Shown: positions 2,672 through 64,000 of the stretch, piece by piece
How positions within the stretch are numbered: the first letter of the stretch is position 1
How the letters are laid out: every line of letters starts with the position of its first letter
Source of the DNA: a virus
Virus genome (UHGV): UHGV-0084588
Length of the DNA stretch: 64,000 nucleotides
Reading direction: 5' to 3' (one strand)
Made by a program: the position numbers and the translations under genes
Notes under the pieces: generated by a model
The model's database searches: none
Seen by the model: the letters and a program-made list of their open reading frames with translations, nothing else
Told to the model about the DNA's origin: nothing

Positions 2672-4966
2672 ATGAAAGATACCCGAATCTCTAATCTGGA
2701 GAAACTCGTACAAGCTGGTAACTCGCTGGTACAAAGCGTCATTAGTAACAACAGTGCTGGCGAAATGTGGAACACCATCGTTGCTGGTGAATCTGTACGT
2801 AGCAACACGAAAGTTTTTGGTACCCTGCGTGACGACGCTGCACAGCACTACGCAAACGCGTTTGCTGGCGGTAAGAAAATGTCCCACGCTGCGGAAGTTG
2901 CTTCTGCAATGATTCTGGGTGCTGCTGGTCACGGTATGGACCTGCAAGAAAAAGTAGCGCAAGAATACGCTAAACCAGAATTCCATAGCCGTTTTAACCT
3001 GGACGTTGCGATTCCTGGTTCCCAAGCTGGTAACGGCGACTGGGGCAAAGAGCGTATGGTTGTCGCTCAGGAATACTACACCAACAAAGACTACGACAAA
3101 AACCTGGGTCTGACCTGGACGCTGAACGTACGTGCTCTGGAAACTCAGTCTCGTTTCGCTGAGACTCTGTTCCCGACCATTACCGTTGACACCAACGATG
3201 TTGGTATTACCGTACGTACCAAAGTGACCACCGTTTCTCGCGGTGTAATGAACGCACTGCTGAGCAAAGACGTTGTTGAAGATCATCGTCGTCCGCTGCA
3301 CAACGCACTGACCGACCACACCGTTCTCCAGGACGAAGCGATCAACATCGTTCCTTACGTAATGGAAACCGGTGAAAACGCTGAATACTTCGTAAGCGAA
3401 GATCTGGTGCCGAACGAATCTGTTCGCCTGGGCCGTGTACCTCCGTACCCGACTAACTACCTGAGCTTTGCTAAAGACACTCTGAACCTGTTCCAGCTGT
3501 CTGCGCATCCGGGTATCGTTCAGGAAGGTTACGACGAAACTGATGAAATCGCACCGGGTTGTGCTCTGGGCAGCCTGCTGATTTCTGTACGTAAACCGAC
3601 CGAAGAAGCGAAAGCAGGTAAGTTCATCAAACTGCACGTTCGTGACATGCAGTTCGCAACCTTCCAGCGTCCTGCTGAAGGTGATGGCCGTGAGCTGGTA
3701 CTGCAATTCCGTCGTACTGCGTTCTCTCTGAACGCGAAAACTACCGACTGGACTGGTGCGGCTATTCCGGCACTGCAAGCGCTGGGTCAGAACTCTTACA
3801 CCCTGCGTTATGTGATCACCATCAACATGTCTCTGTTCACTACCGGTCAGTTCGGTGGTAAAGTTGACATCGCTGGTCACAAACTGGAAATCGAAGGTCT
3901 GTACGACGCTACCGGTAACAAAGTTGATACCAAATCTGGTACCGGCAAAGTTATCCTGGACGGTCTGAAACTTGAACTGATGGGCTGGCGCTTCGATGGT
4001 ACTCGTACCAACGAAAACCGTCGTACCCAGGGTCTGCTGCTTGACCCAATCTGGGAACAAGAAAACTACAAACTGCAATACGGTTCTCCGATTCTGACCA
4101 AGTCTCCGGTTGGCGTTGAATACGACGACACCGAACGTCTGGACGACCTGATTTCCGCAGTTAACATCCGTAACGAACAGCTGGCTATCACTCAGACGCT
4201 GTCTTACACCGAAGCGGTACGTAACGCTGCTGCAAGCATGATCACTCCGTGGGACAAACCGGCCATTCGTGGTCTGGGCCGTCACTGGGTTGCTCCGTGG
4301 TTCAAAGAGTCTGACTACAACGTTGATGAAGTTGTACAGTCCCTGGATACCAAAGATGCACTGATCAACGCTCGTCAGGGCCTGGTACAGCGTATCGGTA
4401 ATCAGGTAACTCAGGCTATCCAGGAATCTCGCTTCATTCCTGCGCTGCGTCTGTACACCGCCGATCCGGACATTCTGCCGAAAGTTGTTATTGCAACTGA
4501 CGAACCGACTGCATCTATGCTGCTGCTGGTACAGGGCGACCAACGTCTGCTGGGCGATCGCTACGAATACGAAGTGATCACCACCAACGATGACCGCTGG
4601 CGTATCTACAACGCAGCTGACGGTTCCTGGACTCGTCGTCTGCAATGGTTCCTGAAAGTTCCGACTGCGGACGATGGTTCCTACAACGTGCTGAACTGGG
4701 GTAACCACTTCTGGTCTCCGATCATGGTTACTAACATCAACATTCAGCGTAACGGCTCTACCTCTAAAGAGCTGGCCGTACAGCCGCGCAACGCACACAT
4801 CTGCCACTGCCCGATCACTGGTCTGATCTGGGTTAAAGGCATCACCAAACTGGTTGAAGAAAAACTGGCTTACAATGTTTCTGTTGAACAGAACGGTCAG
4901 AAGCAAACCGACGGTGGTGTAGCAGGTAACGTTGCTGGCGATGGCAAAGCTGCTGCTGGTAAGTAA
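2672..4966 (+). CDS. putative major capsid protein (764 aa, jumbo-phage size class)
   Basis: Strongest codon bias in the window (ctg, cgt, ggt, gaa, aaa dominate), SD taagg upstream, strong terminator directly downstream. Size matches phiKZ-type capsid proteins; homology was not verified. Confidence 0.5.
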   Translation: MKDTRISNLEKLVQAGNSLVQSVISNNSAGEMWNTIVAGESVRSNTKVFGTLRDDAAQHYANAFAGGKKMSHAAEVASAMILGAAGHGMDLQEKVAQEYAKPEFHSRFNLDVAIPGSQAGNGDWGKERMVVAQEYYTNKDYDKNLGLTWTLNVRALETQSRFAETLFPTITVDTNDVGITVRTKVTTVSRGVMNALLSKDVVEDHRRPLHNALTDHTVLQDEAINIVPYVMETGENAEYFVSEDLVPNESVRLGRVPPYPTNYLSFAKDTLNLFQLSAHPGIVQEGYDETDEIAPGCALGSLLISVRKPTEEAKAGKFIKLHVRDMQFATFQRPAEGDGRELVLQFRRTAFSLNAKTTDWTGAAIPALQALGQNSYTLRYVITINMSLFTTGQFGGKVDIAGHKLEIEGLYDATGNKVDTKSGTGKVILDGLKLELMGWRFDGTRTNENRRTQGLLLDPIWEQENYKLQYGSPILTKSPVGVEYDDTERLDDLISAVNIRNEQLAITQTLSYTEAVRNAAASMITPWDKPAIRGLGRHWVAPWFKESDYNVDEVVQSLDTKDALINARQGLVQRIGNQVTQAIQESRFIPALRLYTADPDILPKVVIATDEPTASMLLLVQGDQRLLGDRYEYEVITTNDDRWRIYNAADGSWTRRLQWFLKVPTADDGSYNVLNWGNHFWSPIMVTNINIQRNGSTSKELAVQPRNAHICHCPITGLIWVKGITKLVEEKLAYNVSVEQNGQKQTDGGVAGNVAGDGKAAAGK

Positions 4967-4981
4967 TCTTGCTTAAAAAGA

Positions 4982-5022
4982 GTCTAAGCCCTTCGGGGCT
5001 TAGACCTTTTATTTTTTTTTCT
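4982..5022 (+). terminator. rho-independent terminator after the capsid gene
   Basis: GTCTAAGCCC-ttcg-GGGCTTAGAC followed by ccttttattttttttt. Confidence 0.8.
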
Positions 5023-5149
5023 TTCTATTATTTTTTGGATAGATATTATTAAAGGGAGACAGTCAGTTGGTTTTAAAGGAGTATGTATGGAAAAAATACA
5101 GTTTAAACTAAAGATATGTATCATCATTAAAATTTAGCTTGGGTCACCC

Positions 5150-6160
5150 ATGAAACGTCTTGATATTGATGTGGTGCCCAGTATCTCTGAACGCTCGTTG
5201 TATCAAACGTCAGGATTGAGGAAACTTGTTACGTTTGAAAATAACACTGGCGTACCTATTCACGTCACTGAAACCAGTGGCGGTAGCTTTATTTTAAATG
5301 CTTCGAAAAACCCCGCTGATGAGCATGGGGTTATCGTTTACGTAACGTATCAATCGTACGGAAGATGCGCGAATCTCAATGGGTTTGCTGAGCTGATGCC
5401 GGGAAAACATTTTTCTCGCTTTTGCGACCAATTGAAAGAAAAAGGGGAGGTAACGTTAGAGTATGCAGTAAACGATGTTGGCGCGTTGCTGCGAGGAGAT
5501 TTGGTTGTACTAAAGCAATTAGGGTTTGCTTTCTCAACAACACCTATACGCTTAGATAGTAAACCCCCAACTATGCGCCCTGGAGGTGAGCGCACTGAAT
5601 TTACATTGGGTGTTGTTGTTGTGCAGCGCTACGATGAGCCCGACAATTATCGGTGGCTACGTTTCTACGGTACGAAAATGAAAATCGAACCAATAACGTC
5701 ACGCTATTATGATCCGGGTGTTTACATGATAATAGGAGGTGGTACGAGGGTGGAAGGGAGTCGTATGATTCATTTTGAATTCGACGACATTACTTCACCG
5801 TTTAGATTATTTAAGGATGAGGCATCGGCGGACGCGTTTCGATGGCAAGAAGCAGTTCCCGGTCTTTATGAGATTAAGCAGCGTTTAGAGGAGCAGTACA
5901 AAGAAAAATTAGAAAGCTTGGATTCGGCAAAAGACAAGCTAGAATTGGAACACAAGAAACAACTACAGAGTATGGCTTTAGAAAAGGAGCGATTGACTTT
6001 AGCATTCAAACAACAGGAATTGGAAGCGAAGTCGCGGGCTGAGGCGCGTAAAGAATTCTACGAGACGCGTTCTTACATTCGTAAGGACGGCTCAGACCTA
6101 TTTAAATCTGTCCCTGCGTATTTGGCGGCGGGTGTCGCATTTATAGGGATGCTAACGTAA
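5150..6160 (+). CDS. hypothetical protein with C-terminal coiled-coil (336 aa)
   Basis: ORF after the capsid terminator; C-terminal third is E/K/L-rich heptad-like; ends in a hydrophobic segment. Confidence 0.55.
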   Translation: MKRLDIDVVPSISERSLYQTSGLRKLVTFENNTGVPIHVTETSGGSFILNASKNPADEHGVIVYVTYQSYGRCANLNGFAELMPGKHFSRFCDQLKEKGEVTLEYAVNDVGALLRGDLVVLKQLGFAFSTTPIRLDSKPPTMRPGGERTEFTLGVVVVQRYDEPDNYRWLRFYGTKMKIEPITSRYYDPGVYMIIGGGTRVEGSRMIHFEFDDITSPFRLFKDEASADAFRWQEAVPGLYEIKQRLEEQYKEKLESLDSAKDKLELEHKKQLQSMALEKERLTLAFKQQELEAKSRAEARKEFYETRSYIRKDGSDLFKSVPAYLAAGVAFIGMLT

Positions 6161-52497: not shown

Positions 52498-52613
52498 ATT
52501 GGTTTGCTAAACTCTTAGCACTATTGTGGAAAGCGTTAACGTCTGGACGGAAACGTAAAGACGAAAAGCGTGGGTACGAATTTTTCTGGTTTCTATAAGG
52601 GAAGGTGTGGGTA

Positions 52614-53279
52614 ATGGAGAAGCTTCAATATAAACGTTTAGACAATAAGTGGTTTGTATTAACGGAGGATTACCATTATCCGTTTACGTTACGCGAGATT
52701 TATCACGACCACGTACACTTAGACCGTGCGGTTTATTTAACGGGTGTATTGCCTGACACGCAACTGTGGTTAACAGCACCGAAAGGGTTCGTTACCGATT
52801 TAGCGTCAATTCCTGATCACCTCCAGGGAATTTTCCATCCTGACGGACCGTGGGCACCTGCGGCCTGTATTCACGACTTACTCTATCAAAAATGCAACAC
52901 AGAGCGTAGCTATCCCATGACACCGGGTGGTAACGTTTCGCGTTTTATCGATAAAGAGTTCTCTGACTTAACTTTCCTGCGTATTATGCAGTCGTTGGAA
53001 ATCTCGCCTTATATCTGCCAAACATTTTATAAGGCTGTTGTTGAATTCGGCTGGGATGCCTACGTAGATCCTAATGCAAAGCCATCCTACAACACTAACG
53101 CGTTTCGTACGTTAGATTACAATCGAAACTATTTATTCGTTCGCGAGTTTAAGGAACCTGCAATCCCTGACCACGAACGTATTGATATCACCACAGATTG
53201 TCCCGTTAATGTCAAATACCTGAACATCAAACGGGCATTTCTGTCTGGGAGGGAAGATGTTTCATCCAAATCCGAGTAA
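52614..53279 (+). CDS. DUF1353-like phage protein
   Basis: GFVTDLASIP...HD.LY resembles the DUF1353 signature as I recall it; ATG at 52614 preferred over the track start 52605. Confidence 0.4.
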   Translation: MEKLQYKRLDNKWFVLTEDYHYPFTLREIYHDHVHLDRAVYLTGVLPDTQLWLTAPKGFVTDLASIPDHLQGIFHPDGPWAPAACIHDLLYQKCNTERSYPMTPGGNVSRFIDKEFSDLTFLRIMQSLEISPYICQTFYKAVVEFGWDAYVDPNAKPSYNTNAFRTLDYNRNYLFVREFKEPAIPDHERIDITTDCPVNVKYLNIKRAFLSGREDVSSKSE

Positions 53280-54510: not shown

Positions 54511-55041
54511 ATGGCTAAAACCTTCCAACAGCAACTTATTGACGCTGTTAATACCAAAAACAGTACCCTGGACCCCGCACTCACCGTAGCTGATGTTGAC
54601 TTTGGTGCTGTTGCTGAGTTCACCGGAGAAGCTGGCCGCAACACTAAAATTACCCTGACCGCCAAGGAAGAAAGCCAGCACTTCAAGGGCGAGAAAGAAT
54701 TCCACTATACTCGTCTTTCATGCGACATCGTTGGTGAAGTTGAAGTAACTGCACCTGCTACCGATTTCGATTCAGCAGCGAAAATCCTGGCGAAAGTTAA
54801 CGCAGCCATGGCTGAGAAAGGGTACACCGATGACGAGTTCGGTGAAAACGACCTGCAAAGTATTTCTCGTGAAGAAGAAGGCAAAACCATTTACGTAGTA
54901 ACTGTTGTGGCCGGACACCTGAAGTTCCTGCCAGGCACTGTTGCAACGTATAAAGTTACTCCTCCGGCTCCTGAGAAAGTAGCACTGGACGGTCTGGAAG
55001 GTGAACTGGATAGCTTCACTGCACCGCTTCCTAAAGAGTAA
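54511..55041 (+). CDS. member of the six-copy paralogous family, codon-biased (176 aa)
   Basis: Family pattern; host-like codon bias suggests high expression; a sigma70-like -10 element lies upstream. Confidence 0.6.
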   Translation: MAKTFQQQLIDAVNTKNSTLDPALTVADVDFGAVAEFTGEAGRNTKITLTAKEESQHFKGEKEFHYTRLSCDIVGEVEVTAPATDFDSAAKILAKVNAAMAEKGYTDDEFGENDLQSISREEEGKTIYVVTVVAGHLKFLPGTVATYKVTPPAPEKVALDGLEGELDSFTAPLPKE

Positions 55042-55106: not shown

Positions 55107-55637
55107 ATGGCCGCTACTAACCAGATGATGTTGGTCGCGCTTTATAATGCTGCTAACACTGAGCTACCACATCAGATTACTGATAAAGAAGTGTCCTTTG
55201 GTCTCCCTACTGCGCTGGAAGGCAAAAGTAAGAATACCAAAGTTACCATGACTGCACTACCGGGTTCTGAGAATTTCAAAGGCGCAATCGAGCTGCATTA
55301 CGATCGTCTGGAGCCGGGTGTTGTAGGACGTATTGAACTAACTGACGATTTGTCTCGTTGGGAAGATCAAAACGAATTGCGCGCATGGTTACAATATTAC
55401 ATCAACAAAGTAAAACCTGACGACGCTATCGCACCTGGTGACGTTGTGTACAGCACCGAAGACCAGAAAGACGAACATGATAACGTCACACTGCGTACGG
55501 TAACGTGCACCGTTACTGAAAAGAACCTCCGTTATAAACCGGGTGTAATGGCAACTTTCGTAATTACGCCGAAAGTTGTTGACAATCGTATTGACCTGGC
55601 CACTACCAACGGCGAGCTGGACGGCTTTACGTCCTAA
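55107..55637 (+). CDS. member of the six-copy paralogous family (176 aa)
   Basis: Family pattern; bidirectional terminator downstream. Confidence 0.6.
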   Translation: MAATNQMMLVALYNAANTELPHQITDKEVSFGLPTALEGKSKNTKVTMTALPGSENFKGAIELHYDRLEPGVVGRIELTDDLSRWEDQNELRAWLQYYINKVKPDDAIAPGDVVYSTEDQKDEHDNVTLRTVTCTVTEKNLRYKPGVMATFVITPKVVDNRIDLATTNGELDGFTS

Positions 55638-55638
55638 G

Positions 55639-55691
55639 AAAAATAAAAAAATACCTACCTCCCGTAATAGGAGGTAGGTATATCTTTTTTT
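55639..55691. terminator. bidirectional terminator between convergent blocks
   Basis: aaaaataaaaaaa-TACCTACCTCC-cgtaata-GGAGGTAGGTA-tatcttttttt; lies between 55107-55637 (+) and 55701-56372 (-). Confidence 0.65.
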
Positions 55692-55700
55692 CACTGTCGA

Positions 55701-56372
55701 TTACAGCCCTTGCTCTAACGCAAACGCTTTTATCGAATCGTAATCACGCGCCTCAGCCCAAGCCCTGACTTCTTTTTTCTGCTCAGACATTGCGTGGTGT
55801 AGTCTTTGATCACGCGCAACGATTGCTGCCATCAGCGCTTTGCACTGCTCTAACGAAAAAGGTTCGATGCGGGTGTTAGCCGTGTCCAACCAATAACTCG
55901 GTGCTGTTTCAGACTGGATATACTGGCCCAACATTTGACGAGACGTTTCGTCCGCTTGGAAGTAGCGACCATCGACTTCAATATATCCGTGGCGCTGATC
56001 TTCATAACGGTGTTCCATCTCCAACATGATTTTCTGGATATCGAGATAGATGTAACGCGCCGTCGAACGCATATTCGTTCGAATCTCTTCCAGGTTAATC
56101 TCCAGAACGTCAGTAATGAATTCTTTTGCTTTGTTCAGTGTAAACTTCGACTCGATAGGAGACATTTCGTAAGTTTTCATCTGGGCTAAAGCTTCTTCAT
56201 CACTCATCCCTTCAATCAACTTGTAGTGCAGTAATGCACAGAACCCCGTACGTCCACGGTCTTCGTTACCTACACGTTCCATGTAGTTACCATGGCGGTC
56301 AATTGGTAGATCGTGCGCGAAATAACGTGCGCGAATCTCTTCTTTCGTTAAGCTTTTGTTAGAAGCAGACAT
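55701..56372 (-). CDS. hypothetical protein, last gene of the radical SAM operon (223 aa)
   Basis: ORF overlapping the upstream gene; HD..H-like motif near the N-terminus is too weak to call. Confidence 0.5.
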   Translation of the reverse strand: MSASNKSLTKEEIRARYFAHDLPIDRHGNYMERVGNEDRGRTGFCALLHYKLIEGMSDEEALAQMKTYEMSPIESKFTLNKAKEFITDVLEINLEEIRTNMRSTARYIYLDIQKIMLEMEHRYEDQRHGYIEVDGRYFQADETSRQMLGQYIQSETAPSYWLDTANTRIEPFSLEQCKALMAAIVARDQRLHHAMSEQKKEVRAWAEARDYDSIKAFALEQGL

Positions 56373-56938
56373 TCTTCTTCTCCAACCATACCTAATTCTT
56401 GCAGCAAGCCAAAATCAATCAACTGGAAGGTTTCAGAGAGATCGTTTGACCACACCACGTTTGCAATGTCGCGTTCTTCATCGGATAATTGCGGTAACAC
56501 ATTTTCGTTGAACGTCTGATGCTCTACGTAATAAGCATCGTAGATAGACGTAGAACGCAAGCAACGGATTGGCAGTCTTGGGAAAGACACCGCTAATGCA
56601 GCAATAGATGCGCTGCTCGGATTCTCCGCAGAATAGCGAAGCAATTCGATTTTGTGGCGCGGATAGTCCAGTACGCGTTGCTCGAAACCCGGATTACGTT
56701 TTTCGATTTCAACAACGGACTCATGACCTGTTTCTGTACAGTAAACGGGAATCATCACGTTTAGCCCGTACTTAATTAACAGAGGTTTAATCTCATCTGT
56801 AAAGTCTTCGCCAGGGATAATGGCGTGAACGTTATAGAGTTTATGTTTGCGCAGAAAACGCTCAACCAGATGGAGTTTACGCTTCGTAAAATTGTGGATC
56901 AGAATTGATTTCATTATTTGCCTCAGTAGGTTGTGCAT
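56348..56938 (-). CDS. hypothetical protein in the radical SAM operon (188-196 aa)
   Basis: ORF overlapping the rSAM gene stop; an alternative ATG at 56914 has SD gagg. Confidence 0.5.
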   Translation of the reverse strand: MHNLLRQIMKSILIHNFTKRKLHLVERFLRKHKLYNVHAIIPGEDFTDEIKPLLIKYGLNVMIPVYCTETGHESVVEIEKRNPGFEQRVLDYPRHKIELLRYSAENPSSASIAALAVSFPRLPIRCLRSTSIYDAYYVEHQTFNENVLPQLSDEERDIANVVWSNDLSETFQLIDFGLLQELGMVGEEECLLLTKA

Positions 56939-58211
56939 TTAAAGCACGTTTAGCTTGCTCACGCTCACGCGTACATTTCGGACAGTAACAAACAGACGAA
57001 TCGTGCAGTGACGATGCGTGGACGGTACCCGTACGTTGACGCCAGTATTCTGCTGCCATCAGTTTTGCGGTCGTCCAGCCACATTGACGACGTTCAGCGT
57101 GGTACGCCTTACGGTCTTCCAGTGTCCCTTCACCGTTTTCGTAGGAAGCAGCTGCACAGCTGCCACAACCGTGTTTCATCGGACAGCCTAAGCACGTTTC
57201 AGGGTAGTTAGTATATTGCGTCTGAATCTCTTCCAGCAGCTTCCCGTCATCTAAACTAACGAACTCGCGACCAACTAATTCAAACACCGCAGAACGTGAC
57301 GTTACCGTTGACATAAAACGGTTACAACCGTATACCTTGCGGTCAAAACCTAAACAGGTCATGAACGTTAACGTACCACAGAACGGACGTAGGCGATCTG
57401 GGTTATAACGATGCGTGTCGTCATACAGCAGCTTATCGCGCCAATCTGGGTCCCAAATCTGACGGAAATCCAGACCTTCGGGAATGATATGTGACAACAC
57501 GTTACGTGGATTGGTGTGCAACCCTTTCTCAATCCAATAATCCATCACGTCGATCATCTGCAACGCAATATCCGTTGCCATGCTCCGTGGAAGAATATCT
57601 TCGTACGTAACGTTACCTGAAATCGTACCGCCACCGGCAACATCGATTAGCGATTTCATACTCGCTGCATAATGCGGTAACGTTTCGGTCGTAAAGGTTG
57701 CCTTGATACCCAGTTCAGCAATACCGACTTCTTTTAAGTAGTTATAGCCACGAACAGCGGCTTCGTAAGAACCTTGACGCGTCGTGGTAAAGATACGATA
57801 GCGGTCATGGACTTCTGGTAAACCGTCGATAGAAACACCGATGGAGAGTTTGTCTTTCCAACGCTCAACAATCTCACGGTTTAACGGGCGATCTAACAAC
57901 GTACCGTTAGTTGAGATACTGAACATATACGGGCGATTGTGCTCCTTACACAACTGTTCTGCGGTTTCGAACGCCGCTAACAGCAGTTTCGGTTGCATAA
58001 AAGGCTCACCGCCGATGATATCAATAATGACGTCGATGTTCGGAATATCTTTATCGCGCTCAAAACACGCGTGTAAGAAATCCACGATATCCGCCGCTTT
58101 GTTATTACGCGGATACTTACGTTCGTAACAATACTCACAGTCTAAGTTACAAGACAGATTCGTTACCACCTGGTAAGTACGTTGAGAACGTGGTGCTTCA
58201 TTATTGCTCAT
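56877..58211 (-). CDS. radical SAM enzyme with C-terminal SPASM-like Cys-rich domain (444 aa), candidate peptide maturase
   Basis: Canonical CNLDCEYC (CxxxCxxC) near the N-terminus; C-terminal clusters FCGTLTFMTCLG...GCNRF and CLGCPMKHGCGSCAAA fit the auxiliary Fe-S pattern of SPASM/twitch domains. Confidence 0.75.
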   Translation of the reverse strand: MSNNEAPRSQRTYQVVTNLSCNLDCEYCYERKYPRNNKAADIVDFLHACFERDKDIPNIDVIIDIIGGEPFMQPKLLLAAFETAEQLCKEHNRPYMFSISTNGTLLDRPLNREIVERWKDKLSIGVSIDGLPEVHDRYRIFTTTRQGSYEAAVRGYNYLKEVGIAELGIKATFTTETLPHYAASMKSLIDVAGGGTISGNVTYEDILPRSMATDIALQMIDVMDYWIEKGLHTNPRNVLSHIIPEGLDFRQIWDPDWRDKLLYDDTHRYNPDRLRPFCGTLTFMTCLGFDRKVYGCNRFMSTVTSRSAVFELVGREFVSLDDGKLLEEIQTQYTNYPETCLGCPMKHGCGSCAAASYENGEGTLEDRKAYHAERRQCGWTTAKLMAAEYWRQRTGTVHASSLHDSSVCYCPKCTREREQAKRALNAQPTEANNEINSDPQFYEA

Positions 58212-59118
58212 CTTTGCTTATCCTTTTACGCTCTGCATAAATCACGCGTTTAATGTACTCGTAAGCACCTACTCCAATAGAGCAAGCGAGCTGATTGCAG
58301 CCACCGTTTAAGATAGCTGGGGCATTCTGAAGCTGATGTTCTGTTCCATCTGCGTTCAAATACAACTCTTCGCTACAAACATTACACTCGTTTTCGAAAA
58401 TCTTGCTGACAGACACGCCGCACGATTCTCCAGTTTGGACGTTCAACCGTTCCATATTCTCCTGAATTTTTAAATAGCCATAAACGAAGTTCATGACGTG
58501 ATCAGGAGACAATGGTTTTGGCATCTGCGCATCAAACATTAGAGAAAACGCACGGGGACGATAGTGGTACATCGCACGATGCAAATCCACAATATCTTCA
58601 TACCAGCGCTTATCCGCTAACTGGTCACGCGTAATCACAGCCCAGGTTTGGAAATTATCGAGTTCGTATAACGCTTCCAATGCTTCGTGGCTATCCTCTT
58701 CAATAAAGCGCATAAAAGGGCGCTCAGAACGCTTGTAGCCATCAATTGATACAAACACATGCTCAAAGTCTTTTAGCAGCGTAAGATGCGATTTACGCAG
58801 TTTTAAGCCGTTGGTATACAAGTGATGCTCAAGGTGCGGATGAGACACTTTCAATTCGTTAACGAAATCCTCAATCTTACGTTGGACGAGTAGCGGCTCG
58901 CCACCGGTCCAATGTATTTCCTTAATAGCCGGATTCTCTTGTAGTAATTCCAGGATACGTTCGCGTTGAAAAGCACGAGACGAATCTTCACGATTCATGT
59001 AGTAGGCTCCACCGCAGAAACTACAATCTAGGTTACACTTAGACGTCGTAACTACGGACAATATAGTGGGTTTATCGTACAACTTCGTCGAGATCCTGGA
59101 TTCCACATTGTCTATCAT
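58201..59118 (-). CDS. radical SAM enzyme (305 aa)
   Basis: CNLDCSFCGG (CxxxCxxC) motif; GGEPLL glycine-rich SAM motif; C-terminal CNVCSE...GGCNQLACS Cys cluster; overlaps the downstream rSAM gene by 11 nt. Confidence 0.7.
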   Translation of the reverse strand: MIDNVESRISTKLYDKPTILSVVTTSKCNLDCSFCGGAYYMNREDSSRAFQRERILELLQENPAIKEIHWTGGEPLLVQRKIEDFVNELKVSHPHLEHHLYTNGLKLRKSHLTLLKDFEHVFVSIDGYKRSERPFMRFIEEDSHEALEALYELDNFQTWAVITRDQLADKRWYEDIVDLHRAMYHYRPRAFSLMFDAQMPKPLSPDHVMNFVYGYLKIQENMERLNVQTGESCGVSVSKIFENECNVCSEELYLNADGTEHQLQNAPAILNGGCNQLACSIGVGAYEYIKRVIYAERKRISKDEQ

Positions 59119-59138
59119 TGCAGGTTGCTCCAGTATTT

Positions 59139-60026
59139 TTAAATATAATCGATGGCGAATAAAGGATCTTCGTCGAAGTTAACACCTGGTTTTAAAATCA
59201 GTGGTGAATTATACGCTTCCAGTAAACGGTTAAGTTCGTTGTAGCGGCTATTCATCCGTTTGAGGTCTTCTAAGGTTACAACACGGTCCAGCATCGGTTT
59301 AACCGCTGCGGCTTCCTCGTCAGTCAATTTAACTTTCGACAACAGGAAACTGACGAGTTTAGAAATGTCCGCTTCGGTGGCTGGACTCTGACCGAAACGT
59401 ACCTGAACCATGTGCTGCATCCACGGTTTACGAATGCGTTTCGTAATCACGTGTTCGTCAGTAATGGCTTTCCAAACCGAACGCTCACGAATCCATTCAA
59501 ACTTATAGCTGTACGCCATTAAGTCAGCCAGATGCGTAATTCCGAGTTCTTGATAACCTTCAATATCGATATACGGTTCCGTATCAAAATACTCTTTGGT
59601 ATCCTTTTCAACCAAAGCGTAGTAGTTAGGGAACGCACCCAGGTAGTCTGGGCTCCACCAACGACGGGCCATCGGTTTAGCATCGAGTTCTTCAAACGGC
59701 GTGAACATAAGTTCTAAGTCAACTGTATTATTTAACACACCGTCGCTAAAGAAATATTTGCCGTCGATAAGTTTACCGCGTTGTGAGTTATCACCGGTAA
59801 AGACAACAATGCTTTCGCCAACCATATCACGAATTTTAAACGTGTTCTCAACCGTAAAGTTGTCACGATTAGCGATATGACGGCCGCGCACTTTCGGCCA
59901 TTCCCCAGGAATCATGGCAATTAAACGTACGTCGTCGGCAAGATGGTGACGTACCGAATCAGGGGAAGAGATGTGAAGTGGATGATTGAACGTTGTCGTA
60001 TATGCAAGATGTAGATCGTTCTTCAT
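59139..60026 (-). CDS. hypothetical protein between the peptide genes and the rSAM genes (295 aa)
   Basis: ORF in operon; function unassigned (could be a leader-recognition or processing protein). Confidence 0.55.
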   Translation of the reverse strand: MKNDLHLAYTTTFNHPLHISSPDSVRHHLADDVRLIAMIPGEWPKVRGRHIANRDNFTVENTFKIRDMVGESIVVFTGDNSQRGKLIDGKYFFSDGVLNNTVDLELMFTPFEELDAKPMARRWWSPDYLGAFPNYYALVEKDTKEYFDTEPYIDIEGYQELGITHLADLMAYSYKFEWIRERSVWKAITDEHVITKRIRKPWMQHMVQVRFGQSPATEADISKLVSFLLSKVKLTDEEAAAVKPMLDRVVTLEDLKRMNSRYNELNRLLEAYNSPLILKPGVNFDEDPLFAIDYI

Positions 60027-60094
60027 TGATTACTCCAATTATTTCACGGTCAAACGGTCATTCAGGCTATAGAGTCTACCACTGGAGGGTTTAC

Positions 60095-60301
60095 TTACCT
60101 TCCCCCCGCACCTTTACTACAGCTACCACTGCACGCCCAGCTACAACTGCCGTTACAGTTATAGTGGGTTAATGGTAATCCTGCCAAGTTATTCGTCGTG
60201 GACACCGTACCTTGGTTAGCGATGTAGTTATTCGCGTCTGAGGTTTTGATGTAGCCTTCAACCTGACCGATTCTGTCTCGAATATTTTTGAGGGAAATCA
60301 C
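60095..60301 (-). CDS. Cys-rich peptide, short paralog (68 aa), candidate RiPP-type precursor
   Basis: GTG start with SD ggaggt; hydrophilic leader then core CNGSCSWACSGSCSKGAGGR. Confidence 0.55.
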   Translation of the reverse strand: MISLKNIRDRIGQVEGYIKTSDANNYIANQGTVSTTNNLAGLPLTHYNCNGSCSWACSGSCSKGAGGR

Positions 60302-60311
60302 TTCTCACCTC

Positions 60312-60707
60312 CTATCGTCCTGTACACGCTGAGCAACCGCCAGTACAGCTACTGGAACACGATGCTGTGCACCCGCCAGAACAAGTGCCTGAGCACAGGT
60401 TAGCACACCCACCTGAACAACTCCCCGAGCACCCTGAACACGAAGTGGAACACCCTGACGTACAGTTTGCAGAACATGAGGAACCACAACCGCCGGACGC
60501 GTTCCCAGTACACCCACCAGAACAACTCGAACAGGTAAACGAACACGTACCCGCACAGTCGTAATGCGCACGATTCTGACCGCCGAACAGGTCTGCGTTA
60601 TTCGTACCTTTATTGCGGATATAGTTCTGTACACCCGTGGTATTTTTCAGTGCGATACTATCGACGTTATTAAGACGTCTTACTAATTCAGATAAACCGA
60701 CTGCCAT
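60312..60707 (-). CDS. Cys-rich CXXX-repeat peptide (131 aa), candidate RiPP-type precursor
   Basis: ATG with SD gggggaag; about 50-aa leader then an 80-aa core with roughly 22 Cys at mostly 4-residue spacing in a Gly/Ser/Thr matrix. Confidence 0.6.
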   Translation of the reverse strand: MAVGLSELVRRLNNVDSIALKNTTGVQNYIRNKGTNNADLFGGQNRAHYDCAGTCSFTCSSCSGGCTGNASGGCGSSCSANCTSGCSTSCSGCSGSCSGGCANLCSGTCSGGCTASCSSSCTGGCSACTGR

Positions 60708-60716
60708 TTCTTCCCC

Positions 60717-61109
60717 CTATCGTCCAGAGCATCCGCCGGAGCAAGCACCCGAACAGTTATGCGAACAACGTCCAGTACAACTTCCGGTACAGGTACTTGT
60801 ACAACTGCTAGAACAACCGCCAGAACAGCCAGAGCATCCTGAACAGTTACCCCCACAGGACGAAGAACAGCTACCCACACAAGCGGCTGAACAGTTACCT
60901 GAACAGCTAGAGCAACCGTGACTACATCCGTTAGAACATGTCCACGAACACGTTCCTCCGCAGTCTAAACGTGAAGGTGTCCAACCAGAAAACGAATCTG
61001 CCGCGTTATGCGCTTTCGATGCGACCTGCGCATCGACACGAGGGCCGGTAGCGACTGTATTTTCTACTACGGTTAACCGATCGCGCATTTGTTTAACACT
61101 AATCGCCAT
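60717..61109 (-). CDS. Cys-rich CXXX-repeat peptide (130 aa), candidate RiPP-type precursor
   Basis: ATG with SD aggaag; leader then core CGGTCSWTCSNGCSHGCSSCSGNCSAAC... with roughly 21 Cys, ending GR. Confidence 0.6.
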   Translation of the reverse strand: MAISVKQMRDRLTVVENTVATGPRVDAQVASKAHNAADSFSGWTPSRLDCGGTCSWTCSNGCSHGCSSCSGNCSAACVGSCSSSCGGNCSGCSGCSGGCSSSCTSTCTGSCTGRCSHNCSGACSGGCSGR

Positions 61110-61174
61110 TACGCTTCCTTAAAATTAAAATAGAGGAGGAACCAGCCATAAGCATAGTTCCTCCTGTAATAAAA

Positions 61175-62374
61175 TTATCTCGTACCTGCTTCTGCCTGAA
61201 CGTCATCACGGGACGTCAAGTTAGCGTTAACGTGCACTGAAGCCTGAACCACACCGCCGTATTTCTTGTGCAGGTAACCTGTGTGTGGGTTATCCGCCGC
61301 AATATGGTTTTGTAGGTTCTGATTCGCCTGACTGATTGCGTTCGTGTTATTCGCAACCTGTTGTTTAAGCGCATCCAAGTTTTGTTGCAGATTATCAATT
61401 TTCTGATCGGTCTCATTACCCCGCTGTTCTAACGCAGCAATGCGCTGAATCGCTTGGTTGAGCTTGGTGTTCAGATCGTTGATATTTTTCTGTAACTGTA
61501 ACACTAACGAGTTTAGGTTCGCCAGTGCCAGTGCCATTTTCTGGTAGTTTTGTGCAACGACGTTAAGTTGGTCGTTCCACGCTTCCAGAGATTTGACAAC
61601 AGCATCAATACGTTTTCCTAACGCTTCGTCCGCTTTCTTCAATGCGTTGATTTCAGTAATCGTTGCATCAATGGCAGACTGCACGTCGCGGATAAGCGCA
61701 CGGATTTCCGTTTCCGTTAACCCGTTAACCTGATGAATATCCAGATGGTGGACATTACCAGTGGAGTTAATGTGCGCGTTCAGCGCGTCCAGGAAATCGT
61801 TTTTCAGGCTATCGAGAATCGCTTTGATGTTCTCAAGCTGTACAGCATCGCCCGCAGTTATCGCATCTTTAATACCGGCGAGCACTGTAATGATGTATTC
61901 GAAGCCGTAGATATCGCCGACGTCTTTATACGTTGGTGCCGAAGGAAACGTGTCCGGCACATTTCGCAAGTCTTTAAAGCCAACAGTTCGATTATCGAGA
62001 TTCAACTCGGCAATCGCTTGCTCAATCGCGGTCACAACTGCAGACTGTGGACCACCAACTACTTGCGCCGATACCGTGATATCGGTCGGAATCGCGGTGT
62101 TCGTTACAACAACCGCCATTACTACTTCCCGGTTCTTCGTCAATTTCTCGTAAGCCGGGTGTGCAAAAATCAGCTCATAGTCCGTTCCACGCTCATACGT
62201 CGCTCCAGGTCGATTGGCAACCCGCAAGCGGAACGTATCGGCATAAAACGGGCCATCAGGGAAAGCAAACGCACGGTTAACTTTACCTGTACCTAACGTA
62301 ATCTGACGCTCCACGGCGTTAGAGGTTAGGGTTCCCGTTAAATCTAAAGGGTATTGGTATACAATGGAGGCCAT
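61175..62374 (-). CDS. fibre-like protein with long coiled-coil segment (about 400 aa)
   Basis: Track ORF 61175-62482 trimmed to the ATG at 62374 (SD aaggagag); central Q/N/L/A-rich heptad region typical of fibrous phage proteins. Confidence 0.55.
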   Translation of the reverse strand: MASIVYQYPLDLTGTLTSNAVERQITLGTGKVNRAFAFPDGPFYADTFRLRVANRPGATYERGTDYELIFAHPAYEKLTKNREVVMAVVVTNTAIPTDITVSAQVVGGPQSAVVTAIEQAIAELNLDNRTVGFKDLRNVPDTFPSAPTYKDVGDIYGFEYIITVLAGIKDAITAGDAVQLENIKAILDSLKNDFLDALNAHINSTGNVHHLDIHQVNGLTETEIRALIRDVQSAIDATITEINALKKADEALGKRIDAVVKSLEAWNDQLNVVAQNYQKMALALANLNSLVLQLQKNINDLNTKLNQAIQRIAALEQRGNETDQKIDNLQQNLDALKQQVANNTNAISQANQNLQNHIAADNPHTGYLHKKYGGVVQASVHVNANLTSRDDVQAEAGTR

Positions 62375-62414
62375 GGCCACTCTCCTTAATCCGAGACGTC
62401 CTTGTCTCGTGGCG

Positions 62415-64000
62415 TTAAGATGTAAACATAAGATTGAACTGGAGCTTATCGATATCGCGAGTTTGTGCTGGGTTAACCGCATCGTACGTGGTTGCCACGT
62501 AGACCGTTAACGTGCCGTCAGAAAACGCGGTTTTCACCGGTGGTGTAGTCCCTGTCTGTCCATCAGTTACAATGACGACAGGTTGAGCCGGGAGTTGACG
62601 AAACTGACTCTTAACCGCTTTATACACCAAACCAGATTGTGCCGCTTGCTCTGTGGCGGTGTACACGATAAACGGTGTGTCGATATCTGTCTGTTTAATG
62701 ACAGTGTTCGTCTCAACGTCAATCAGCTGAACAGCACCAAATTTGGTCCGGTAACTATCGTATTCATTTTTTGGAATGACAAACGTAGCATGAAGGCGGA
62801 CTTCGGCGGCTGGCTTAAATCCCGCGTGTTCTTTTTCCAGGTAACTGTTAGCAGTTAGCGTTACTGTCTGTTCAGTCATCGTACCGCCAGACTGATTTAG
62901 CCCGTAACGAACTTGAGTTATACCTGTCGGGGCCGCAAGCCTGATTTTCAGTCGACGATTAGTAGTACCAGGATCGCCAGGTACTTTAACACGCAGACTC
63001 AATGCCAGATATGCATACTCGCCGGTAGTCGGTTTCGTATACGCACCCAACCACTTCATGTTCGCGGTTGCTGCTTGTTTGTTCTCAGAAGCAGTAGCCG
63101 CTGCAACGTTCGCAGCAACCGCTTTCTGCCAGAACTGGTCAGCGCAGTTCTCATACGCCACCCTGCTGATACTTTTATAACCTGAATAGGTTTCCTGTAC
63201 CGGCAACCTGGGCCGCGTTGCAATCCCGGACAACGTATTCCATTTCTGGCCATCGACATACCCAGCACCCTTGCTCGCAGATGCTGTAATGGCTTTAACG
63301 GGTTTATTAACCACTGTTAATAGTGGACCAGTTTTCCTGTCGAACGCCTGCGCCACATCGTGCTGATCAACAACCGAGGCATGATTTTCCAGCTCTTTTA
63401 CACGACCTAACCGTTTTACTTTATCGATACTGATATCCGTAATACGGTTCGAATCAGTGGTTACTGTCCCAACAAACAGTCTCGACGAGGTATCAGCTAA
63501 CTGCTCTAAACCGATGCGGTATTGGGCAGTAGAACCGACCACTTCAGCATAAACGTAGAATGTCTGGTTAGCGTGATTAGTCGGGAATTCATCGCTTAAA
63601 TCAACGGACCATCTTGGAACGGTATATCTTTTATTTCCAAAACTTAACTCGGTTTCCTCCGTCAGATAGAAATTCCAACCGCTCTGTGTTTGTACGCCGC
63701 CAATAATAATCTTATCGATAACAGTATATTTTTTGTTAAACAAATCAGAGATTCTATACTGTTCGCCACCGAGATACAACTCGTTTAAATCTTCCGAGTT
63801 ACAAGTCAATAGCGCGATGCCCGAGAGATCGGGTATATAGACTTCAGATGTATTATTCAGCGTATACGTATAGCCCCACGCCCGATGAATTTCGCCGGTA
63901 AACCATTCTCCTTTTTTAGTCAAGTTTATCCCAAAAGCAAAAGAAATCTCTGATCCTACAAGATTCCCGCCAACCAGGTTATGTATTGAGAATCTGAACT
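62415..64000 (-). CDS. large structural-type protein, 5' end outside the window (partial)
   Basis: Reading frame stays open from 62415 to the window edge; the TTG at 63923 given by the track is probably not the true start. Confidence 0.5.
   Translation of the reverse strand, partial: FRFSIHNLVGGNLVGSEISFAFGINLTKKGEWFTGEIHRAWGYTYTLNNTSEVYIPDLSGIALLTCNSEDLNELYLGGEQYRISDLFNKKYTVIDKIIIGGVQTQSGWNFYLTEETELSFGNKRYTVPRWSVDLSDEFPTNHANQTFYVYAEVVGSTAQYRIGLEQLADTSSRLFVGTVTTDSNRITDISIDKVKRLGRVKELENHASVVDQHDVAQAFDRKTGPLLTVVNKPVKAITASASKGAGYVDGQKWNTLSGIATRPRLPVQETYSGYKSISRVAYENCADQFWQKAVAANVAAATASENKQAATANMKWLGAYTKPTTGEYAYLALSLRVKVPGDPGTTNRRLKIRLAAPTGITQVRYGLNQSGGTMTEQTVTLTANSYLEKEHAGFKPAAEVRLHATFVIPKNEYDSYRTKFGAVQLIDVETNTVIKQTDIDTPFIVYTATEQAAQSGLVYKAVKSQFRQLPAQPVVIVTDGQTGTTPPVKTAFSDGTLTVYVATTYDAVNPAQTRDIDKLQFNLMFTS

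Follow-up and report, generated by a model that had tools for sequence, protein, structure and literature searches.

The window examined here is the whole 64,000-nt stretch of UHGV-0084588, a giant Salmonella phage, which encodes on its minus strand an operon composed of three genes for Cys-repeat proteins (pepA, pepB and pepC), a conserved accessory protein (orf295), two radical S-adenosylmethionine (SAM) enzymes (rSAM1 and rSAM2) and two further genes. Based on comparisons with related loci in phages, prophages and bacteria, we assign a probability of roughly 60% to the reading that this operon is a tail-fibre accessory module, in which the Cys-repeat proteins are fibre subunits modified by the radical SAM enzymes. 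The Cys-repeat domain itself is probably an enzyme-modified fibre tip and not a free peptide. An earlier note on this DNA had outlined eight minus-strand genes, the three small ones with strong Shine-Dalgarno sites, and a terminator, and had listed a modified virion component among the possible products; the layout was borne out at every coordinate, including a Shine-Dalgarno site of its own before each of pepA, pepB and pepC, and among the products listed the virion component is the one that the evidence favours.

The observation that carries this reading is that in other phages the same repeat forms part of a tail fibre. In a P2-like prophage of Campylobacter pinnipediorum (L005) baseplate J and gpI are followed by a 384-aa fibre, a 250-aa gene, a long radical SAM gene, a short radical SAM gene, DUF1353, sheath and tube, and the fibre contains a PF12571 N-terminal domain and a C-terminal CXXX repeat (...GCNGCSGSCSGSCSSGCTACSGCSGSCSGKSDGCGCRHS). 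In a lambda-like prophage of Deferribacter abyssi (L004) a GpJ-like gene is followed by a 302-aa fibre-like protein, a 250-aa gene and two radical SAM genes; the last ~100 aa of the 302-aa protein constitute a CXXX tail starting with CSDCSWTCSSSCTGSC, to be compared with CGGTCSWTCSNGC in PepA. The ~250-aa genes located between the Cys-tipped fibre and the radical SAM pair in these prophages are homologous to the C-terminal half of orf295 (4e-12 for Deferribacter, and 0.012), and the short radical SAM enzymes of the prophage cassettes are related to rSAM1 (1e-13 and 1e-5). Altogether, the two prophages and the jumbo phages evidence a four-part cassette (Cys repeat, orf295-like protein, short radical SAM and SPASM radical SAM) that is conserved across unrelated phage types. 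Further fused proteins were detected in L018, where a 568-aa protein is encoded behind a baseplate-J-like gene, and in P0173, a 212-aa mini-fibre known from the protein alone. In L087 the start of a small Cys-repeat open reading frame (ORF; 4937-5248) nearly coincides with the stop codon of a 577-aa gene with a T7 tail-fibre N-domain, an arrangement that could represent translational coupling or a frameshift fusion, and a 170-kb phage contig (L088) encodes a 116-aa Cys-tipped protein, an orf295-like gene, two radical SAM enzymes and a downstream DUF4376 gene.

The N-terminal regions of the three window proteins are paralogous (M-A-I-S-L-K-x-I/V-R-D-R-L … N-N-x-D-L-F-G-G-Q-x-x-x-H-Y-[DN]-C) and, in alignments of orthologues, visibly as conserved between phages as the cores. 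The junction motif that precedes the repeat, NNADLFGGQNRAHYDC in PepB, recurs at the same place in full-length fibres, namely TNADQLGGQAGSYYRC in L004, NAVTLGGQPPDFYTC in L018 and ENKAPDYYRC in P0173. It is on this motif together with the repeat that the homology between the window proteins and the fibres is based. An AlphaFold2 monomer model of PepB placed helices at residues 5-41 with a predicted local distance difference test (pLDDT) score of 50-68, and no confident fold was obtained for the Cys core (pLDDT <50); the N-terminal region of PepA is predicted to be helical as well, carrying over the PepB model.

These features bear on a conventional pathway for a peptide synthesized ribosomally and modified post-translationally (RiPP), in which the ~50-aa leaders would be removed and the cross-linked cores freed at lysis as toxins, signals or anti-defence effectors, an explanation that we consider unlikely. 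Its attraction lies in the small precursor-like genes placed directly upstream of a SPASM maturase akin to the ranthipeptide and SCIFF enzymes, in a Gly at a fixed position ahead of the core that loosely resembles a double-glycine cleavage site, and in a Ruminococcaceae locus (L103, 6851-14047) that encodes 59- and 65-aa Cys-repeat peptides, a 738-aa radical SAM enzyme and an ATP-binding cassette (ABC) exporter, so that Cys-repeat peptides with an associated radical SAM enzyme also exist in a conventional secreted-RiPP-like setting. Yet comparisons with Pfam, NCBIfam, PHROG and PDB profiles revealed no protease, exporter, RiPP recognition element (RRE) or immunity gene in the window operon; several unrelated phages carry the repeat covalently joined to a fibre protein, the window operon sits inside a structural tail module, and N-terminal regions visibly as conserved as the cores do not favour a discarded leader. 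A double-glycine leader site was considered and rejected: the residue ahead of the Gly is S, G or A, the operon has no gene for a C39 peptidase, and full-length fibres contain this motif internally. The leader-plus-core framing of the earlier note was therefore abandoned in favour of the tail-fibre reading, since the junction recurs in complete fibres and the repeat is their C-terminus elsewhere.

The association between the repeat and this group of enzymes was evaluated in 87 sequences, comprising the window, three regions of SPN3US-type phages, three prophage loci and 80 loci obtained by scanning viral contigs with an rSAM2 alignment. A CXXX-repeat ORF on the same strand was present beside the radical SAM gene in 77 of the 87, and the rSAM2 homologues outside the jumbo phages, with 30-40% identity, occur in consistent contexts. 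As a control, 80 loci with mostly generic SPASM enzymes were taken from the matches listed in a single scan of species-representative bacterial genomes, a sample that does not amount to a census; in these listed loci true CXXX proteins were found only beside the seven enzymes most similar to the query family, and six further loci showed short, dissimilar Cys-rich matches. The link between the Cys-repeat genes and this radical SAM clade, as proposed from the single operon, thus held in the wider comparison. Four of the seven loci, from Firmicutes (L090-L092 and L097), have prophage tail neighbours including gp25, baseplate J, P2 gpI, gpU and gpD as well as Mu gp48, a sheath initiator, Mtd_N, a holin and an amidase.

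Three kinds of locus could be distinguished. SPN3US-type jumbo phages (class i) encode two proteins of ~130 aa, usually the 68-aa PepC, orf295 and two radical SAM enzymes (three in L017). Class ii (L004, L005 and L018) comprises fusions to full fibres with two or three radical SAM enzymes; P0173, L087 and L088 are grouped here as well. Class iii is the classic cassette, in which a single radical SAM gene is accompanied by one or two small genes and by a gene for a protein of 200-370 aa containing up to 64 Cys; its targets contain a conserved 105-125-aa N-domain which the window targets lack, its enzymes are true TIGR04115 members (455 bits in L030, 309 bits in L033), and one small gene of such distant loci matches TIGR04116 at 1.6e-22. 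In L017, a jumbo-phage contig whose rSAM2 is 83% identical to that of the window, the third enzyme is an extra short-type radical SAM gene (3564-4475, within 3147-4935) between pepA and pepB. The 937-aa protein encoded at 2976-5789 of L065, a viral contig, has its Cys repeat in the middle of the chain (residues 270-461), and the ~470 aa behind it form a C-terminal domain with many GTGTGTGPF repeats, showing that the Cys repeat can also be internal.

The genomic context points in the same direction as the fusions. The window operon is flanked by fibre or baseplate virion proteins of the gp167 and gp168 types and by DUF4376 and DUF1353 genes, and in other loci the upstream neighbours with an annotated PHROG fall mainly into the families tail fibre, tail collar fibre, baseplate and tail. 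Class iii cassettes also come after baseplate J, gpI-like and P2-type fibre genes (e.g., L021), both in viral contigs and in prophages of Firmicutes. At the DNA level the window region is ~74% identical to, and has the same synteny as, both Erwinia phage pEa_SNUABM_29 and the SPN3US-type jumbo phages of the genus Seoulvirus; each of the three Cys-rich genes has a conserved counterpart there. According to the SPN3US virion proteome (PMC5694885, Supplementary Table 1), gp167-gp173 are non-head virion proteins, and gp168-170 were termed baseplate or tail-fibre candidates (PMC5694885). The gene immediately upstream of pepA (61175-62482, minus strand) encodes a gp167-like coiled-coil protein, related to fibres, that matches phrog_2163 at 5.4e-104; the same profile matches the P2-type fibre of L021 at 8.6e-14. 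The gp167-like protein, which this profile alone links to the single-chain fibres, may together with the Pep proteins correspond to such a fibre split in two, and it is a candidate for the partner to which the Cys-repeat proteins attach.

The Cys-repeat genes themselves are real protein-coding genes under selection. PepA (60717-61109, minus strand) is a 130-aa protein with an N-terminal region of ~49 aa, a 78-aa core containing 21 Cys and a C-terminal CSGR; pepB (60312-60707, minus strand) encodes a 131-aa paralogue with 20 Cys and pepC (60095-60301, minus strand) a short paralogue of 68 aa with an N-terminal region of the same type and 4 Cys. The initial description of cores with about 20 Cys consequently applies to PepA and PepB but not to PepC. 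The spacing between consecutive Cys is exactly 4 in 17 of 20 gaps in PepA, 15 of 19 in PepB and all 3 in PepC, and when the cores of PepA and PepB were shuffled 100,000 times, the observed periodicity was not reached once. The cores of PepA and PepB consist to ~95% of Cys (~27%), Ser, Gly, Thr, Ala and Asn; Ser or Thr directly follows 18 of the 21 Cys of PepA, and Lys and Arg are nearly absent, leaving almost no tryptic sites. As repeat-rich DNA leaves several frames open, the Cys reading frame was tested against orthologues from ten related phages, and ratios of nonsynonymous to synonymous substitution (dN/dS) of 0.07-0.19 were obtained for the whole genes (0.08-0.19 for pepA), with synonymous sites saturated and all Cys columns conserved. 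Expansion of tandem repeats in the DNA was dismissed as the source of the periodicity, which is thus maintained at the protein level, since only short, imperfect arrays of 9-24 nt were found. PepA and PepC match phrog_6085 (2.7e-37 and 1.2e-25, respectively), and pepC has no orthologue in the most divergent jumbo-phage loci (L014-L016).

Both enzymes belong to the radical SAM superfamily according to Pfam (Radical_SAM, 8.5e-15 for rSAM1 and 5e-14 for rSAM2). The larger, rSAM2 (56877-58211, minus strand; 444 aa), is a radical SAM/SPASM protein with the motif CNLDCEYC and 8 C-terminal Cys, and its best NCBIfam match is TIGR04115, "radical SAM peptide maturase, CXXX-repeat target family" (6e-36; 124.7 bits, against a curated cutoff of 350 bits), followed by PapB (111.7 bits, also far below its cutoff) and, in the remainder of the top 25, mostly by further peptide maturases. 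Membership of the TIGR04115, PapB or Hxs families was discarded, all scores lying far under the curated cutoffs. In an alignment of 21 homologues with 27-84% identity the CX3CX2C motif (residues 21-28) is invariant, as are C296, C340, C343, C349, C352 and C377, and C278 and C286 are at least 90% conserved; the resulting C-terminal pattern, CX2CX5CX2C plus a distal Cys, is a complete SPASM set, as expected for two auxiliary [4Fe-4S] clusters, in agreement with the SPASM-like Cys clusters described earlier. Among solved structures the closest to the rSAM2-family profile is CteB (5WGG; 4.5e-36, covering CteB residues 104-427 through the SPASM region) and the next is the anaerobic sulfatase maturase. 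As the alignment with CteB begins at residue 104, rSAM2 does not contain the N-terminal RRE domain. Based on these features, rSAM2 is predicted to be a cross-linking maturase.

The smaller enzyme, rSAM1 (58201-59118, minus strand; 305 aa), is a short radical SAM protein with the motif CNLDCSFC that matches known NCBIfam and PDB families over the radical SAM core only, and for this reason it is not assignable to a peptide-maturase family. Three C-terminal Cys (C-x1-2-C-S … G-C) are retained in its family, a pattern that resembles a twitch domain and would fit a single auxiliary cluster. The 295-aa protein orf295 (59139-60026, minus strand), as well as orf196, gave no NCBIfam match, and the cassette thus contains no TIGR04116 accessory protein. 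The suggestion of the earlier note that both enzymes are peptide maturases is accordingly upheld for rSAM2, for which TIGR04115, PapB and CteB are the best matches, but not for rSAM1.

The features of the two enzymes are relevant to the proposal that the Cys-rich proteins are unmodified metal-binding or disulfide-containing structural proteins, similar to metallothioneins or to metal-binding motifs in the fibres of other phages, and that the radical SAM enzymes perform unrelated nucleotide, cofactor or host-metabolism chemistry. Cores with ~27% Cys could bind metals or oxidise after lysis, the top NCBIfam matches of rSAM1 include MoaA, QueE and NrdG-type families (over the core only), and in the literature on the SPN3US group the radical SAM genes have been described as enhancing host metabolism (PMC6614189). 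However, the best matches of rSAM2 are all peptide maturases with full SPASM domains, so that a function as nucleotide, tRNA or cofactor enzyme was ruled out for it but might still apply to rSAM1, in which the core alone matches; in the profile search, which had been suggested as a check on a grouping with nucleotide- or tRNA-modifying families, rSAM2 was placed with the peptide maturases. In addition, radical SAM enzyme and Cys repeat are paired repeatedly, in phages of the jumbo, P2-like, lambda-like and other types, but not in the listed loci with generic SPASM enzymes. Altogether, we regard this proposal as very unlikely.

Returning to the fibre reading, a mechanism can be put forward in which PepA, PepB and PepC would be small fibre subunits, each made of a helical fibre-junction segment and a (Cys-Ser/Thr-X-X)n domain, the latter being the domain found at the distal C-terminus of single-chain tail fibres in other phages. 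Inside the infected cell rSAM2, aided by the twitch-like rSAM1 and by orf295, would modify the repeat. Given its position between substrate and enzymes and the lack of an RRE in rSAM2, orf295 may be a docking or scaffold protein that replaces this domain. The likeliest modification would be a ladder of intramolecular or inter-chain thioethers connecting the Cys sulfur to a carbon of neighbouring residues, because CteB, PapB and, more distantly, QhpD all form Cys thioethers; Asp and Glu, which do not occur in the cores, cannot serve as acceptors. By this process, a sequence without predicted fold would become a covalently stapled rod or knob, resistant to proteases and heat, which could act as a receptor-binding or stabilising tip. 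The modified proteins would be built into the periphery of the fibre or baseplate, next to the gp167- and gp168-type proteins.

Several observations, besides the exporter-containing Ruminococcaceae locus, weigh against this reading. A hairpin followed by a U tract (61134-61165, minus strand; free energy (dG) -19.8 kcal/mol, z -3.7), which may be a terminator or an attenuator, lies between the fibre-like gene and pepA and sets them apart. When a hidden Markov model (HMM) of the N-terminal region was searched against 13,661 ORFs of all loci with the Cys parts removed, the sole match beyond the jumbo-phage group lay in the Deferribacter fibre, ahead of its repeat (E = 0.016), so that homology between leader and fibre is marginal, though suggestive. 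Pairwise BLASTP comparison of the gp167-like protein with the fibres of L004, L005 and L021 gave no significant similarity. The TIGR04114 HMM scored the three Pep proteins at only 15.9 (PepA), 13.2 and 11.3 bits versus a cutoff of 20, and the low scores of rSAM2 for TIGR04115 and PapB belong here as well. As the cores offer no Asp or Glu acceptor such as PapB uses, the chemistry is not transferable from a known enzyme. Finally, none of SPN3US gp161-gp166 was detected in virions (PMC5694885). Regarding the Cys-rich proteins the SPN3US proteome is uninformative, because their ORFs were missing from the annotation searched and the cores contain almost no Lys or Arg.

In another alternative, the radical SAM enzymes would modify the large gp167- and gp168-type proteins and the Cys-repeat proteins would be non-virion accessories such as assembly chaperones or sulfur or iron carriers. 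The operon adjoins the large fibre genes, and the SPN3US homologue of its DUF4376 protein, gp161, is among those undetected in the virion proteome, as expected of a chaperone. Against this, the Cys repeat is the constant companion of the enzyme in true TIGR04115 cassettes and in prophages, whatever the fibre type, and the repeat itself lies within the fibre polypeptide in several phages; we therefore judge this alternative highly improbable.

Beyond the window, it can be speculated that the whole "orphan RiPP" family of CXXX repeats with SPASM enzymes is a technology of phage tail fibres and not a natural-product pathway, with tips carrying thioether ladders in jumbo, P2-like and lambda-like phages and in phages with T7-type fibres. 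This generalisation is tentative, and the odds are somewhat under even that it will hold. Within it, SPN3US-type phages might have split the system into three subunits served by two radical SAM enzymes and an accessory protein of new fold. The appraisal of such peptide maturation systems as rarely described in phages is correct for the literature but misleading as to the biology, as the family is mostly borne by phages and prophages, in tail modules.

The Cys-repeat genes are poorly annotated in the related phages. SPN3US_0166 (RefSeq ACQ60_gp100; L001 10626-10961, corresponding to NC_027402 143409-143744) reads the pepB orthologue in a wrong frame, and the SPN3US record has no annotation for the orthologues of pepA and pepC; in the record of the Erwinia phage two ORFs on the opposite strand (L002 10618-10890 and 11125-11337) are annotated across the Cys-rich genes. 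A search with PepA in a database of 5.8 billion proteins retrieved only 9 relatives, and more than 70 of the fetched loci nonetheless encode such proteins; the scarcity of relatives in the database indicates that gene callers generally overlook or mis-frame CXXX-repeat genes. Some relatives bear the precomputed family PF27846, a recent Pfam family, under which others may already have curated them. A 226-kb contig labelled "Salmonella enterica serovar Chester" encodes an rSAM2 with 99% identity, and contigs of ~240 kb under the labels Salmonella or E. coli harbour many SPN3US-type copies; SPN3US-type jumbo phages are common passengers in bacterial assemblies, via a carrier state or contamination.

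The remaining features of the operon and its surroundings are as follows. Downstream of rSAM2, and overlapping its end, orf196 (56348-56938, minus strand) encodes a conserved 196-aa protein that matches phrog_7988 at 1.2e-77, is syntenic in SPN3US and the Erwinia phage and was met only in SPN3US-type phages. The last gene of the operon (55701-56372, minus strand) encodes a 223-aa DUF4376 protein (PF14301, 3.9e-10) that matches phrog_8169 and, more weakly, the tail and tail-fibre families phrog_2837 and phrog_1807. Both genes had been listed as unassigned, a description that still suits orf196, without Pfam or NCBIfam match, and no longer suits the DUF4376 gene. The operon is closed by a bidirectional intrinsic terminator (55651-55681; dG -24.4 kcal/mol, z -6.4). 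With respect to the gp167-like gene, its orthologues start at the Met of MASIVYQYPLDLTG (62377), and the true start is probably at this position, the listed start at 62482 being over-extended. Upstream of it lies a 502-aa ORF (62415-63923) whose listed start has a stop codon shortly before it, and whose match to the gp168-type profile phrog_7449 (1714 positions) is limited to the C-terminal 490 residues; the large gp168-type fibre gene may be split in this phage, or its remainder may lie outside the window. At 52605-53279 a DUF1353 protein is encoded (1.8e-14), and a DUF1353 gene is also located right after the radical SAM pair in L005 (8068-8433), suggesting that DUF1353 may be a further shared component of the fibre module. 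Two tandem DUF7941 genes (54511-55041 and 55107-55637) are homologues of the abundant SPN3US head protein gp160; one such gene is present at this position in SPN3US and three similarly sized genes in the Erwinia phage, so the copy number appears to vary.

If the fibre reading is correct, part of the apparatus with which phages recognise their hosts would be made by radical chemistry. Virion protein modification would thereby gain a new class, and fibres possibly a new and very stable architecture. To our knowledge, there is no earlier case of radical SAM modification of a virion structural protein, nor of a fibre fold covalently cross-linked in this manner. In the open-access papers and bioRxiv preprints searched, nothing was found on tail fibres as a target of the CXXX family or of radical SAM enzymes in general. 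The orphan families TIGR04114-04118 would be recast as a mobile structural module, changing where their function and products are sought. As the Cys-repeat genes are systematically overlooked or read in the wrong frame, proteomic and comparative work on these jumbo phages, which are candidates for therapy, has been blind to them. A direct test of the hypothesis is feasible, since amber-mutant genetics and an established workflow of virion mass spectrometry are available for SPN3US. Should the chemistry be confirmed, enzyme-stapled Cys-repeat rods could be of interest to protein engineers.

Among known systems, the closest is the CXXX-repeat maturase system (maturase TIGR04115, Cys-repeat targets TIGR04114/04117/04118 and accessory protein TIGR04116), which has been defined bioinformatically and for which we know of no biochemical characterisation. 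As in that system, a target with Cys at every fourth residue adjoins a SPASM radical SAM enzyme, and true members, such as that of L030, are located in the same kind of phage tail module. Differences concern the enzyme, rSAM2 being only ~25-28% identical to true members and scoring far below their cutoff; the composition of the cassette, which in its classic form contains one radical SAM gene and genes for ~100-200 aa and in the window a second, short radical SAM and a 295-aa accessory protein; and the targets, which in the window are devoid of the conserved N-domain. An association of either cassette type with tail fibres is mentioned neither in the family descriptions shown nor in any paper found.

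The characterized enzymes CteB (5WGG/5WHY) and PapB are SPASM proteins that install Cys thioethers in the SCIFF, ranthipeptide and freyrasin classes, and they share with rSAM2 a radical SAM core, a full SPASM domain and Cys-rich, regularly spaced substrates. In contrast to CteB, rSAM2 has no N-terminal RRE, and unlike the PapB substrate, which uses CxxxD motifs, the window cores offer no Asp or Glu acceptor. Moreover, whereas the peptides of the CteB/PapB class have 45 aa, the putative substrates in the window have 20 or more Cys in PepA and PepB and would be fibre domains or homologues thereof, and the operon lacks the leader protease and exporter of those systems. The His-Xaa-Ser system (the SPASM protein HxsB and the short HxsC) resembles the window in its two side-by-side radical SAM enzymes and its target with a short-period repeat; it differs in that the repeat is HXS and not CXXX and the setting is not a phage tail, and the scores are far from the family cutoffs (rSAM2 with HxsB, 74.8 vs 370 bits; rSAM1 with HxsC, 47.2 vs 267.9 bits).

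A conceptual precedent for cross-linking by a SPASM enzyme of a protein that stays in a larger assembly is provided by QhpD/QhpC, where QhpD equips the gamma subunit of quinohemoprotein amine dehydrogenase with Cys thioethers; the homology is weak (rSAM2 with TIGR03906, 55.5 bits), and the two systems are unlike in substrate, in the number of links and in biological setting. On the structural side, the tips of the long and short tail fibres of phage T4 are stabilised by His-coordinated metal ions. A metal-binding fold of the T4 short fibre, trimeric and "knitted", is cited in PMC2938197. In both cases a short-period motif at the distal end would confer stabilisation beyond ordinary folding, but metal coordination in T4 is non-covalent and enzyme-free, whereas dedicated radical SAM enzymes are encoded in the window. 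In view of these likenesses and differences, the system of the window is a divergent variant of the known CXXX/SPASM kind, distinguished by two radical SAM enzymes, an accessory protein of putatively new fold and three split targets.

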